Part shown: piece after piece, positions 10,395-33,728 of the stretch
Layout of the letters: every line of letters begins with the position of its first letter
How positions within the stretch are numbered: the stretch's first letter is position 1
Origin: Azolla caroliniana
Lineage: Eukaryota > Plantae > Polypodiophyta
Direction of reading: 5' to 3'
Length of the DNA: 64,000 nt
Assembly: GCA_043228905.1 (NCBI GenBank)
Contig: JBHGNT010000013.1
Coordinates: forward strand, 10,292,001 to 10,356,000
Notes under the pieces: model-generated
Told to the model about the DNA's origin: nothing
What the model saw: only the letters and a program-made list of their open reading frames with translations
Databases searched by the model: none
Made by a program: the position numbers and the translations under genes

Positions 10395-10456
<62 letters not shown>

Positions 10457-10465
10457 GAATCAAAT

Positions 10466-10897
10466 TGTTAGAACCAAAAATAAAAGATAGAGTGATGGAA
10501 GAAGGATATAAGAGAACAAGAGAAGAAAGGAACGAAATGCTAAGAGAAGAATGGGTGCATTAAGATAGAAAAAGAAAGAGAATGGATACAAGATATGTAA
10601 TGAGAGCTGAAGACTAGTGTTGATTCAAATTGATTTGAGAATACATGTATGCCCCTATTTATAGGTTCCTATAGAATAACTTATAGATTTCTATAATGTT
10701 AGACTAGAATGTTCGAGGACATTCTAGAACATTCTTGAATGATCCAGGGTTTTTACAATAATGGATGTAATATAAAAAGTAGCTTTTATCCTCTTATGTG
10801 GCAATAACCTATCTTAATGGTTGAGGTTTTCAATCATGGATTACAAGGTCCTAGGTTCAAGTTCGGGTGACGCCATAATGGTCATGTGTTCATGACA
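10466..10897 (-). mobile_element. 5' LTR of the Gypsy element at 801-3990 (same family as 14212-14655 and 15920-16210)
   Basis: TG...CA ends and clear similarity to the 14212 LTR. On the minus strand it is followed by a PBS-position motif (10452-10463), then (TC)n and the gag ATG once the LINE is removed. Confidence 0.85.
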
Positions 10898-11775
10898 CAT
10901 GAAAGCTCAAAGCTTCATACGTAACTTCCTCTACGGTGGAAAAATCAGGTCTCGTGTAGTGGCCAAGGTGGCATGGGATGTTTTGATTAGGCCCATGGTT
11001 GGCTTTAATAGATCCCTTGATGCAATCTCAAGCTTTCCTGACAAAGTTTGTGGTTAGATGACCGTTGTTAGGGACAGAGGCCTGTAAGGGTATGCTACTT
11101 AATCAACTAATGCAATTATCTCCCAAGACGGGAGGAAATTGGTTGTTGTCACGGACACACCAACCGTGAACTCGAACGGAGCATGAATAATGGGGCTACG
11201 AGAGTGGAACTTAAGAAGCTAGGAATGACACAAGAGCATGAAGACAGAGATGAAGAAGGAGACAAATGGAATGAAACGAGAGTACTAGATTGATGTGTCT
11301 ATGACTAGTGTTGAATCCCTTGAAAGGGGGACCAAGGAGGTTACAAGTATTTATACGGTGAGCTAAAGTACATGCATTAGAATATTATAGAGAATATTTT
11401 GGAGAATATTCTAGAACCTTCTAGTTCTAGAACTTTCTATAAACTCCTAGAACTTGAATAGATAATCTACGAAGATATACATAACATGACCATGTATTTG
11501 GATGTGCTGGTTACAAAATAACACTTGACTATAATACAAGAGGTTAAGAGTTTGAATCTTGACATAAGTGTTGTCATGTCTATGACAGTTGCCTTCTTTG
11601 AAATGGATATTCTTGACCGATGCACAAACACCGAGACAAAATCAGACATCCAATAGATTTCTCTTGGGAATAGTCAAAGCATGGTATGCAATCAAGATTT
11701 TCTTACACAAACAGATGCTTGACACATGGGATGGTTGGATGAATCAACTGCAATTGGCTAATTCTCTTGACACGG
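10898..11775 (+). mobile_element. Decayed LINE ORF2 post-RT fragment
   Basis: IRNFLYGGK...AKVAWDVLIRP...LIDPLMQSQAFLTK resembles the L1 region C-terminal to RT. Confidence 0.55.
11147..11587 (-). mobile_element. Solo LTR (441 bp), related to 26370-26919
   Basis: TGTCA...TGACA ends and TSD GTTGT/GTTGC. 11275-11350 is the reverse complement of about 26680-26755. Confidence 0.8.
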
Positions 11776-13600: not shown

Positions 13601-16600
13601 ATTATCTTCTTCGGAGGTCAAATATGACCTATGAGACCAAAAATATTACAATTCACGTGATACGTGTGAAGGTGAGTAGCGACTCTCGATGTTCAAGAAC
13701 TTTACCAATGAATGTTGCAATCGAGAGTGCACATCATGGTTGTGAGAGAAATTCGTGCAAGGATTGGGATCGATTGAATAGATATGGAAAGCATGGTCGA
13801 ATATGATCAAAGGCAGAGCATTGTATCAAAGTGTGATACTCAGACTCTCGAACTTGTTTAGGGCAAAGTGTGCATAGTCGGCCACTCTCATCACTTGTGC
13901 CCCAACGCCCTATCTCACATCTCAATGCATGCGAGCTAAGTCGCATGGAAGCAATGGTTCGAATGGCAGATATCGGGATGGGTTCTAACATGTATCGATG
14001 TGTATAGCTTCCCCGTTCTGCAAAGAATATGGTTTTGTAGTTAGGTGCAACATTTGTAGTATAATGTGTGAAGCGTGAGCCACCACATTTGTCCCATGTC
14101 ATGATACATTGGCATTGCAAAAATGCCTCATTTACAAAGGAATCTAGTGACGCATCATGAAGCAAGTGTCTTGCATCCCATCTACCAAACCATTTTTCTA
14201 AATCTTGCATTTGTCAGAACCAAGAATAAAAGATAGAGTGATGGAAGAAGGATATTAGAGAACACGAGAAGAAAGGAACCAAATACTAAGAGAAGAATGG
14301 ATGTATAAGATAGAGAAAGAAAGAGAATGGATACAAGATATATAATGAGAGCTAAAGACTTGTGTTGATTCAAATTGATTTGAGAATACATGTATGCCCT
14401 TATTTATAAGTTCCTATAGAATAGCTTAGAGATTTCTAGAATGTTCTAGAATGTTCTAGACCTAGAATGCTCTAGGACATTCTAGAACATTCTAGAATAA
14501 TCTAGAGTTTTTACAATAATCAATGTAATACAAGAAGTAGCTTTTATTGTTTCATATAACAATAAGCTATCGTAATGGTTGAGGTTTTCAAGTATGGATT
14601 ACAAGGTTCGAGGTTCAAGTCCGGGTGACGCCATAATGGTCATGTGTTCATGACACTATCCCTCCTTTGAGAACGCCGAGTGGAAGTCGGCGTTAACATT
14701 GTTGGGCTGGGCTTGTTTGGATAGTGACTATGGAAGTCGTTGACCAGAGCTACAACATTACAAACATTATCGATGGGTTCCCAAGTGCGATCACTCGGTG
14801 GATAACCAAGCCAATCAACTAGATAATAAAGCTTATTGCGCACAATCTTAGAATCGAGAATAGTAGCTACCTCTTATTCGGGGCCGTCCACAAGTTGTAC
14901 AGAAGGCGGTGGTGGCACGACACGATTAGGAATTAAAGAGGTGCGGCAAGGTTCCAAAAGAGAGCTATGAAAGACAGGGTGAAGCCGCATATGTGCAGGA
15001 AGGTTAAGACGAAATGTTGCATCATTAATCATCATTAATCTGCGCCGTGATGACAAAAGGACCTAAGCGTTGATAGTCAAGCTTAGCACACGGTCGGGTA
15101 GTCTTGATGTGACGACGAAGCAACCATACACGGTCACCAACCTTAAACGGAGACTTAAGACGATGTCGATCGGCATTGGTCTTATGGTGTGCTTGCGCTT
15201 TCTGAAGATGTGACGATAACTCGAACTGGATTTGTTGTATTCGGTGGAGGTGATGCGCCGCACTAGGGTTTCGTGACACTTCAGGAAGATCCAGTATACA
15301 CCATCGAGGGTGGTTGCCGGTGTAGGCAAAGAAAGGTGTAACTTTGGTAGAAGAGTGGAACGTGTTGTTGTATGCAAACTCGGCAAGATGTAAAATATTA
15401 CTCCAATCATCTTGTTGATAACTAATGAAACATCAAAGATATTGCTCGAGCGTTTGATTTGTGCGCTCTGTTTGTCCGTCAGTTTGTGGATGATAAGCCG
15501 AAGAGAGTTTGCAAGAGATTTTGAGGCCTGCCCATAGGTGCTTCTAAAAGTGTGAGATAAATTGAGGACCTCGATCGCTAATAATATCATTCGAGAGACC
15601 ATGATGGCGAAACACTTCACGCATAATGAAATCTGCAGTTTCTTCACTATTGATGGTCTTTACACATGGTACAAAATGTGCCATCTTGGTGAACCGATCC
15701 ACTACTGTTAAAATAGTATCAAAGCCTTCGGAAGGTGGCAGTCTATTTCCATGGATTTCATTACGGATCAGCTTTAGCTCTCATTATATATCTTGTATCC
15801 ATTCTCTTTCTTTCTCTATCTTATACATCCATTCTTCTCTTATTATTTGGTTCCTTTCTTCTCATGCTCTCTAATATCCTTCTTCCATCACTCTATCTTT
15901 TATCCTTGGTTCTAACAGTTTGATTCGAATTGATTTGAGAATACATGTATGCCCTTATTTATAGGTTCCTATAGAATAGCTTAGAGATTTCTAGAATGTT
16001 CTAGAATGTTCTAGACCTAGAATGCTCTAGGACATTCTAGAACATTCTATAATAATCTAGAGTTTTTACAATAATCAATGTAATACAAGAAGTAGCTTTT
16101 ATTGTTTTATATAACAATAAGCTATCTTAATGGTTGAGGTTTTCAAGTATGGATTACAAGGTTCGAGGTTCAAGTCCAAGTGATGCCATAATGGTCATGT
16201 GTTCATGACAGCATCCAATCGAAACACAAAATTTTGCTTTTATGCGTCTTTTGGATCTTTTTGCTTGCTTCCCATGCAATTCTAAGAAGTTGATGTGAGG
16301 GGCTTTTTTGAACCTTAAGCATGTATTCAACAACCCTCTCCATGGTCATGATCTAAATGGGAAATGATCCCGTCTCAAGGAGGAGGAGGGTGTAGGGTGT
16401 TTGCTTCTTAACTTGTAGAAACTTTGTAAGAAAATGTTTTTGGACATTTTCAAACTCTTTCCACGTAGATTTAGGGATGCTACCGCCCCATACTTCCATC
16501 CCATAGAGAAGAACCGGGGTCACCAAAGTGTCAAAAAGATATTTCTTGAGGACCCAACACTTAATATCTCCAAGATTGCATGTGTTCTCAAATGCATAAT

Positions 16601-23182: not shown

Positions 23183-24299
23183 CTTATTTAGAATGAGAAT
23201 ACTACTTGCTTCTCAAGCTGTTTGTAGTCCTTTTTGGTCACCATAGTATAATGTGTTTATTCAAGTTTTACCATAATCTTCCGGCTTCAATAAACTCTTT
23301 TAGACTTGTATAATGTATTGTCAGATAATACAGCAAGAGTCATGGAACATTTTTGTATGTTATAACCATCATGGAAGATTTCGTATAATTTTGTTTCACT
23401 TGTTCAAGCTACATCATGTGTTGTCATGCATTTGGTGTACCATGAAGAAATGCCTCGAAATAAATATATTTGTAGATTTCTCTTGAAATATAATGAGGGA
23501 GTTTTGCATCATCATAGATATTGAGTACATTGATGATTCTGATCATGACCTTGTTGAATTGAAATCTTGCCTTTGGAAGCGGTTTTTGTACGATTTTTTG
23601 TTTGTTGCGCACTGAAATTCTTGGTGACAGTCCATCTTAATTATTGATCAGTAATCAAATGAAAAGGAGGAACAAGCATAGTAGTTTTGGACCAAAAACA
23701 AGCTCTGAATGGCTAGAAACCATTAGAAACGGTTGTAAAGATGCATGGCTTTCTACCACTTTCTTGACTGGAAAATTCATGATCGCACGATGTCAAGTAG
23801 TAACACAAATGTTCCCCATCAAGTATCAGAGAGGGCAGGGAAAGTCTACATGTTTACAGCTATTACAGCAGGTTTTGGGTCTTTGCTTACGTAGAGAGAT
23901 CTTTAGATGCTATATTAAGTAAGTGCATGTCCCATGGTAGAGAAATGTGACATGAAATCGTCCATGAAGGCCTTCATGGAGTAACTTAGGCACTCATAAA
24001 AACATGCATATCCTAAACACCATCCACTGGAATAATGTTGCCAAGTGCATCCCAGAAGCAGCAAATCATCAAAGTTACCATTAACACTCCATTTTGTTAT
24101 AAACGTGGTTCCGTATTTGATCCTATGCAGGTATTTTCATTTGGTCAGAAATGGAGTGACAATCATGGCCATGATAAGTTTCTGGTAATTCTCCCAGACC
24201 CACTATTCCAGGTGAAATGCAGGTGGGCTGTGTACAAATACGTGATTTGCCATGTATGGTTGAGCTAGCTCTTCTGTGTGTGTCCCACAGCAGAAGGAG

Positions 24300-24427
24300 A
24301 AAAAATTGGGTTAAGATCCTACCCCCGGAGGGGTAAGGATAGCCTTAACGTGTTGAATTGGAAAGCCCGAAGGCTTTTCCCGTCCTTATCGAGGGAGATG
24401 CTAACCTGCTCTCCTTCCATCGAACAC
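24300..24427 (-). ncRNA. U6atac: U6atac minor-spliceosome snRNA
   Basis: Minus strand GTGTTCGATGGAAGGAGAGCAGGTTAGCATCTCC...GACGGG...GCCTTCGGGC...GTTAAGGCT...GGATCTTAACCCAATTTTTT. It has the AAGGAGA box, AGC triad, ISL, UUCG stem, 3' stem and T6 terminator, matching plant and human U6atac as I recall them. Confidence 0.93.
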
Positions 24428-33036: not shown

Positions 33037-33728
33037 TTTGTAACTCCATTCCAGATTGGGTTGTTCCACCCTTACCTCTGAATCAATTTGTTGATGGCTC
33101 GGAATTTGAAGTCATAAGGTGTTTTGGACTCCAAGATAGTATGTAACAAGCTTATTATCTTGTGAATTCGTTAAGGTATACACCTAAGGATCGCACTTGG
33201 CAGCCGACGGAGAACCTTGATAATGCCTCTGAGTTGATAGCTGAATTTCATTGCCAATATCCAAATAAGTCGAGTATTAATTCATGCATTATGACTCGTG
33301 GAACTCATCTTCGAATGAAGGGGATGGTGTTATGAGTAAACAAAATCCTATGAGCTTTAGGGTGACTTGAACCCATAACCTCCTAAGAGAGAACACTTAA
33401 ACTTTAGTCATTAGGTTATTCATATTATACATAATACAAAAATAATCTACTTTATTATAACTTTGACATTGTGACCCTAATAATCCAAAGGGTGCCATGA
33501 CCCTACAATATCCCAAGCGTATCATGACCCTACAAATAAATATCCAAGGGGCACATGCTACTAGTATATAAACAAGACATATTGTATTGTTAGAACCATT
33601 CCGGTTCAACGCCAATCTTTGGTGAATATTATAGTTGTCACTCTTGTATATTTTCCTCTTATAATAAAATATAACCATTTTCTCTCTTTCTTTTTCTCTC
33701 TCCTTTCAATCAAGCTTGGGCCCTAACA
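33037..33728 (+). mobile_element. Chromovirus 3' end: chromodomain relic, PPT, LTR (33328-33728)
   Basis: VLDSKIV.NK.YYLV...DRTWQPTENLDNA parallels the chromodomain at 14640-14880. GAAGGGGATGG followed by TGTTA...TAACA. Confidence 0.8.

Follow-up and report, generated by a model that had tools for sequence, protein, structure and literature searches.

Long terminal repeats (LTRs) of coding Gypsy retrotransposons in the genome of Azolla caroliniana (523 Mb, about 22 chromosome-sized contigs) carry a tRNA-derived module of an A-box and a B-box, which runs antisense to the element and is a real, conserved, and lineage-restricted feature, apparently undescribed in its present form. The module was examined from a window of 64,000 nucleotides, which is the whole stretch of DNA analysed here, and the five copies of this window sit where a preliminary description had placed them. 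Our preferred reading, to which we give a probability of a little under one half, is that the module would be bound as DNA by TFIIIC and would act as a boundary keeping the Pol II promoter of the element open.

Modules of the window and the elements that carry them

Three of the five modules belong to LTR family A, in which the A- and B-boxes start at 10810 and 10854, 14568 and 14612, and 16123 and 16167, respectively; the boxes are 44 nt apart, and AAGGT precedes the B-box in all three. The first lies in a family A 5′ LTR (10466..10897, minus strand), whose primer-binding site occupies 10452–10465. The second lies in a family A 3′ LTR bounded by TG...CA (14212..14655, minus strand), where the A-box (14568..14578) and the B-box (14612..14622, its end 33 nt short of the LTR's 5′ edge) were located on the plus strand by sequence and matrix score, together with an AGGT block (14604..14607, plus strand) that corresponds to tRNA positions 44–47 and is not scored by the matrix. 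On the minus strand, this LTR contains a TATA-like box (14400..14409) approximately 160 nt inside the A-box and a likely R start complementary to the family A primer-binding site (14365..14376), both recognized by sequence, and it is adjoined by a polypurine tract (14656..14669) and a remnant of an integrase C-terminus with a chromodomain (14670..15432). The purine tract and the primer site fix the orientation of the LTR, so that the module is antisense and located at the U3 end. The third module is part of a folded-back LTR (15772..16210), in which a minus-strand U3 meets an inverted U5 at the complement of R and primer-binding site. The fourth (A-box 33408–33418, B-box 33363–33373, minus strand) is contained in a decayed family B 3′ LTR (33328..33728, plus strand) that follows a chromodomain and a purine tract, with a distance of 45 nt from 33418 to 33373. 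For these four, the coordinates agree with the preliminary description. The fifth is a decayed copy in a family C solo LTR (11147..11587, minus strand, flanks gttgt/gttgc), for which a weaker module had been claimed; such a module is present, but its true A-box starts at 11499, with a decayed B-box at 11549–11559 and a spacing of 50, and the stretch quoted earlier from 11524 is the equivalent of an anticodon arm.

The score matrix for the two boxes was built from 26 tRNA genes of the same genome. It gave 21.3, 25.6, and 27.3 bits for the family A copies of the window, and 14.2 and 12.4 bits for the copies of families B and C, respectively; the opposite strand reached only −7 to +3 bits at the five modules, and the 99th percentile of 3000 random 130-nt genome windows was 13.7 bits. 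Copies reaching 15 bits numbered 30/30 in family A, 21/27 in family B, and 17/30 in family C. Over 464 kb, 34 matches of at least 21 bits were obtained, nine of which were real tRNA genes, versus 2–4 in dinucleotide shuffles. ARAGORN and Rfam called no tRNA in the window, modules included. A gene for the U6atac minor-spliceosome snRNA was also observed there (24300–24427, minus strand, 87.7 bits).

A first look at the genome gave 1215 candidate family A LTRs, the best 40 of which were 97–100% alike. A full family A copy measures 5.8 kb, encodes gag, protease, RT, RNase H, and integrase, and has an end of the chromodomain type. A tRNA primer site is absent, and the bases that follow the 5′ LTR are complementary to the likely R start over 12 nt (an exact match in copy L032, whose TATA box is at LTR position 247); a self-complementary primer site of 11–12 nt was found in five of the six Tcn1-like elements checked. 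Family A is a gag-pol-chromodomain Gypsy family, termed Tcn1-like here because its chromodomain and self-priming agree with published accounts of Tcn1. In the second carrier group, the primer site corresponds to the tRNA-Trp of the genome, and one member of the group (L338) possesses pol without a chromodomain. Long pol frames were found in the carriers L229, L255, and L338, and the coding carriers are gag-pol elements of 5–7 kb that retain a TATA box. In both groups, the module belongs to the LTR and is copied with it, facing away from the TATA-like box, which lies 110–250 nt downstream of the A-box. The A-to-B spacing is mostly 43–45 nt across carriers, and the distance from the B-box to the LTR edge is 5–40 nt in Tcn1-like and 66–613 nt in Trp-primed LTRs.

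Several further features of these LTRs were observed. Fold-back LTRs of families A and C (window 15772–16210; L096:1900–1990) join exactly at the complement of primer site and R start, as if the template had been switched at the self-priming duplex. The 5-nt flanks of the window element 14212–16210 nearly match (gcatt/gcatc). The family A U3 (14427–14504; 15982–16059) contains a palindromic array of TTCTAGAA units, which forms a long hairpin with a sub-threshold match to MIR4378 and which we take to resemble heat-shock elements. At the very start of the LTR, a short inverted repeat has the B-box as its loop in family F and in one Met-primed family (L175 and family F, LTR positions 1–23; L347, L288, L106, and L230), and in family E2 only (L192, LTR positions 13–88), the whole module lies inside an inverted repeat of 11–12 nt. 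Among Trp-primed LTRs, an abundant 3.6-kb element with the module (L342, L281–L295) has a single 591-aa frame without a Pfam match, and an extra sense tRNA-like module occurs downstream of the TATA box in L339, L338, L341, and L040. Two Trp-primed types possess two antisense modules and one sense module past the TATA box, so that modules point away from this box on both sides.

Conservation of the boxes and loss of the tRNA fold

The cross-family comparison was made on 25 LTR types, which remained from 28 chosen after exclusion of two below 15 bits and one that was misregistered. The B-box bases at tRNA positions 53–56, 58, and 61 were invariant in 25/25 types, position 57 was A or G, and position 59 was free, an invariance that is partly circular because types below 15 bits had been excluded. 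No such circularity applies to the AGGT block (positions 44–47), since it is unscored by the matrix; its A, G, G, and T occurred in 22, 21, 25, and 24 of the 25 modules versus 13, 11, 15, and 17 of 22 tRNAs, making it steadier in the modules than in the genome's tRNAs, with the reservation that counts across LTR types are not independent events because the types are related. The preliminary description had placed AGGT before the B-box and GCCA after it; the former is kept across families, but the latter is not conserved in position. Between families, the boxes, AGGT, and spacing stay while the spacer and all other LTR sequence change, and the sequence shared by the inner LTRs of 11 types was limited to patches of 30–84 nt.

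The acceptor pairing of the modules was 0.28–0.52, compared with 0.36–0.40 in shuffles and 0.85–1.0 in tRNAs, and the anticodon stem showed 3.64 of 5 pairs, which is below the 95th percentile of the null (3.68); the cloverleaf of a tRNA gene with its acceptor and anticodon stems was not found in the modules. The D stem was barely over its null (2.84 versus a 95th percentile of 2.76), and three pairs are left of the T stem, in which 52–62 and 51–63 covary weakly (P = 0.02–0.04, by a statistic that ignores relatedness). No single tRNA isotype fits the modules when they are compared with the genome's incomplete tRNA set, the best matches being scattered over Arg, Lys, Asn, His, Gln, Met, Ser, Cys, and others. 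As judged from sequence, the retention of the boxes with loss of the tRNA fold fits the pattern of a DNA-binding site and not that of a tRNA, and such an element could be read by TFIIIC.

The same boxes could constitute an active antisense Pol III promoter, the RNA of which is the functional product. This explanation, by which a transcript from the 3′ LTR would extend back across the purine tract to the end of the integrase and modulate expression or silencing of the element, is the main alternative and is considered unlikely but not negligible. Its A- and B-boxes are complete and in tRNA spacing, the DNA upstream is rich in A+T (79% from −45 to −16, where a TFIIIB site is expected), and CAA occurs 5–15 nt before the A-box in 8/25 types, which is borderline against a null mean of 4.3 (P = 0.05). 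However, neither a fold nor a terminator is conserved: 16/19 Tcn1-like representatives lack T4 from the B-box to the LTR edge, and in nine copies the first T4 appeared 0–410 nt past the B-box or beyond the examined stretch. The terminator objection weighs less in the non-chromoviruses, where 5/6 modules have T4 at 5–52 nt from the B-box. In family F, each 5′ LTR would produce a different RNA because the B-box is just 5 nt from the LTR edge. The lack of T4 inside the LTR for most Tcn1-like modules leans to a binding site.

The weak covariation over the 3-bp T stem would speak for a quite unlikely role of the module in genomic RNA, namely as a 3′ tRNA-binding site for the D and T arms that aids dimerisation or strand transfer. 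The bipartite primer site of Ty3, as described in the accessible text of its report (PMC5371799), likewise includes a U3 sequence antisense to tRNA arms, in the same position and polarity as the module, but that sequence matches Ty3's own primer tRNA. A tRNA primer site is absent from the Tcn1-like carriers, the primer site of which mostly pairs with their own LTR, the Trp-primed carriers match the tRNA-Trp of the genome exactly over 6–7 nt at most, the best matches spread over many tRNAs, and there is free variation at position 59 and in the T-stem flanks. A Ty3-like role thus fails, given that a carrier either primes itself or shares no more than 7 nt with its primer tRNA. HIV-1 reportedly has a tRNA-Lys3-like sequence in U3 that matches its own primer tRNA.

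Within families, the boxes are conserved no better than the inner LTR (0.91–0.92 versus 0.89–0.91 in family B), and the case for conservation would rest on the cross-family comparison. The absence of such an excess, together with the several lineages that have no module or worn versions of it, favors the reading that an antisense SINE or a tRNA was captured long ago and that the module is its neutral remnant, passed on with the LTR. We regard this as improbable, in that the boxes, AGGT, and spacing outlast the spacer and the remaining LTR in lineages far apart on the tree.

Distribution among LTR families and their relatives

LTRs were gathered from 3′ junctions regardless of the module and then clustered. 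A median of at least 15 bits was obtained for 7/9 Tcn1-like clusters, and the remaining two kept a B-box-like stretch with a poor A-box. The module was found in 0/5 Met-primed chromovirus clusters, and 0/19 Copia clusters had one of their own; the single Copia cluster that scored (1/19) was rejected, as its match was a nested Tcn1-like LTR piece. A primer-site survey, in which some negatives are possibly truncated, found the module in 6/17 Trp-primed and 0/4 Arg-primed LTR types. A count of 5/5 non-chromovirus types was discarded as biased, since three of them had been found through the module. One Met-primed family has a weaker module at the LTR start (17–18 bits, spacing about 50, without AGGT), and two of the three Met-primer copies with matches of at least 19 bits trace to adjoining Tcn1-like LTRs.

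Abundance was estimated from 35 stretches of 10 kb (350 kb) picked by round coordinates. They contained 28 matches of at least 21 bits, of which nine were tRNA-Ala genes, 15 lay in known LTRs (14 antisense and one sense), one was in a nested LTR piece, one was an unassigned AGGT-bearing module, and two were likewise unassigned, GC-rich and without AGGT. Extrapolation of 16–17 matches per 350 kb gives a total near 24,000 modules (sampling range roughly 13,000–39,000), a rough figure because the stretches were mostly mid-chromosome. No free SINE with the module was recognized among the 19 non-tRNA matches in these 350 kb, and the module was part of the LTR in 30/30 family A copies. A TSD-flanked, tRNA-derived SINE present in some copies only was thus rejected, and the earlier view of a tRNA-derived, conserved antisense module integral to the LTR was borne out by these copies and by the cross-family comparison. 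A 24-bit module with AGGT at L043:3105 had no match among the other loci collected. Nuclear tRNA genes were observed in single-isotype tandem arrays of Ala, Arg, Lys, Ile, and Trp (L219, L263, L141, L158, C8:17.80 Mb, and C16:5.0 Mb), and in a single case (L265), the LTR end of a Met-primed chromovirus lay within a tRNA-Lys array.

The preliminary description had also proposed a targeting signal. TFIIIC near the cDNA end might tether the integration complex, or the modules might be landing pads for other elements; a B-box 5–40 nt from the U3 end, as in the Tcn1-like families, would suit the former, but that of the non-chromoviruses is 66–613 nt from the end. Moreover, a module or tRNA was found in only 4/385 insertion flanks, at four different distances, and ARAGORN called two in 174 LTR loci, one of them doubtful. 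Targeting of either kind is hence very improbable, and that proposal was not borne out in these flanks.

Relatives were sought in metagenomes, where the best 80 of 350 relatives corresponded to 76 loci, ten of which were left unscored. Among these best 80, one accession series had the module in 28/34 scorable LTRs and includes LTR types absent from the set of the present genome. In a second series, 0/32 Tcn1 LTRs among the best 80 of 350 scored in the first 160 nt, and two isolated matches of 16–17 bits were all that appeared within 700 nt; its integrases are 52–57% identical, and its 32 LTRs make up two or three families. No relative was found on viral contigs. An RT tree was constructed from 43 rows of loci of the present analysis, leaving out three planned rows without RT. 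The module-less clade was sister to the carriers E and F (95/88) with the other carriers outside, a placement suggesting that the module was lost there or spread among families sharing a host. Three Trp-primed carrier types are placed at a great distance from the chromoviruses (about 3.6 changes per site); module carriers are found on either side of a very long RT branch, and the module thereby reaches a distant Gypsy lineage, where it is often well inside U3. Its presence in both Gypsy groups requires convergence or U3 exchange. The module possibly originated from an over-copied primer tRNA, since its polarity is the same as that of the primer site, or from an antisense SINE insertion.

A candidate TFIIIC boundary and its nearest counterparts

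In the boundary reading, the B-box would be bound by TFIIIC, and the backward orientation would put the TFIIIB site inside the LTR, between the element edge and the TATA box. The bound complex could stop the spreading of heterochromatin and read-through from flanking DNA, and a Pol III transcript, if any, would be an outward run-off by-product. This role is favored because the module, which points outward, separates the TATA box from flanking DNA and has the TFIIIB position inside the LTR. TFIIIC reads the B-box base-specifically, and the invariant bases of the module resemble this readout as far as it is laid out in the accessible text (PMC11811891). In the accessible parts of two papers (PMC12409998; PMC4228148), TFIIIC sites of yeasts are described as heterochromatin barriers and as blocks to Pol II read-through, and yeasts and animals are the organisms in which a barrier role is known; no plant test of it was found in the literature searched. 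These tDNA and ETC barriers are B-box sites that act via bound TFIIIC, and the module is a candidate site of this type, its invariant B-box contact bases being those expected of one. Both are host loci in yeasts and animals, and the ETC (extra-TFIIIC) sites are without TFIIIB and Pol III, whereas the module keeps the A-box and its spacing and travels with a retrotransposon.

Several points stand against a boundary. That the A-box is intact and the spacing fixed points to a full promoter rather than a B-box-only site, the T-stem covariation could reflect an RNA hairpin, and the boxes show no excess conservation within families. Moreover, the Met-primed chromoviruses, 11/17 Trp-primed types, and a nested Tcn1 clade thrive without the module, and in the 3′ LTR the same complex might impede the transcript of the element itself.

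The nearest known counterparts are TRIMs, miniature retrotransposons with terminal repeats. According to the accessible text of Kojima 2024 (PMC10886601), Helenus (TRIMp3) comprises non-coding TRIMs of 311–1263 bp, with one family in a lycophyte, and is the tRNA-based counterpart of Cassandra. Like the modules here, its LTRs have tRNA-like A- and B-boxes without a functional tRNA fold or a priming role. Its boxes are sense in the LTR sequences of the supplement, whereas the present modules were antisense in 14/15 LTR-assigned matches, and Helenus is short and non-coding, whereas the carriers are coding (gag and pol in the 5.8-kb family A). That text expects the autonomous partners of Helenus to rely on Pol II promoters and to have LTRs other than these. 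It also mentions further Repbase LTRs with tRNA similarity, TRIMs alone being analysed, and tRNA-like LTRs may thus have been noticed elsewhere without description. Cassandra TRIMs likewise have Pol III boxes conserved within plant LTRs (10.1101/2023.07.14.548913, as far as accessible), but these are derived from 5S, belong to non-autonomous elements, are described as never at LTR termini, and drive the element's RNA (PMC10886601). The Tcn1 chromovirus clade shares with family A and its relatives the chromodomain, the self-priming site, and the two-ORF layout, and Pol III boxes in the LTR are not mentioned in the searched text of its two reports (PMC6317226; PMC2864245). The literature searched, with sparse coverage of subscription journals and Repbase reports, contained no antisense A- and B-boxes in coding plant LTR elements.

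We propose tentatively that two distant Gypsy lineages of one plant lineage adopted a portable TFIIIC/Pol III insulator against silencing, by convergence or by U3 swap. If this is true, the genome would contain some 20,000 or more TFIIIC sites, far above typical tRNA gene counts, and some LTRs would bracket their own TATA box with modules at both sides. The capture of Pol III promoters would extend from miniature non-coding to coding elements, in the opposite orientation. The finding addresses the open question of how plant retrotransposons remain transcribable within heterochromatin, for which a defined 55-nt module and its one-base knockout make a cis-acting answer testable. Tens of thousands of candidate TFIIIC sites could shape the chromatin of this plant and would allow barriers of the TFIIIC type to be tested in plants in a natural setting.
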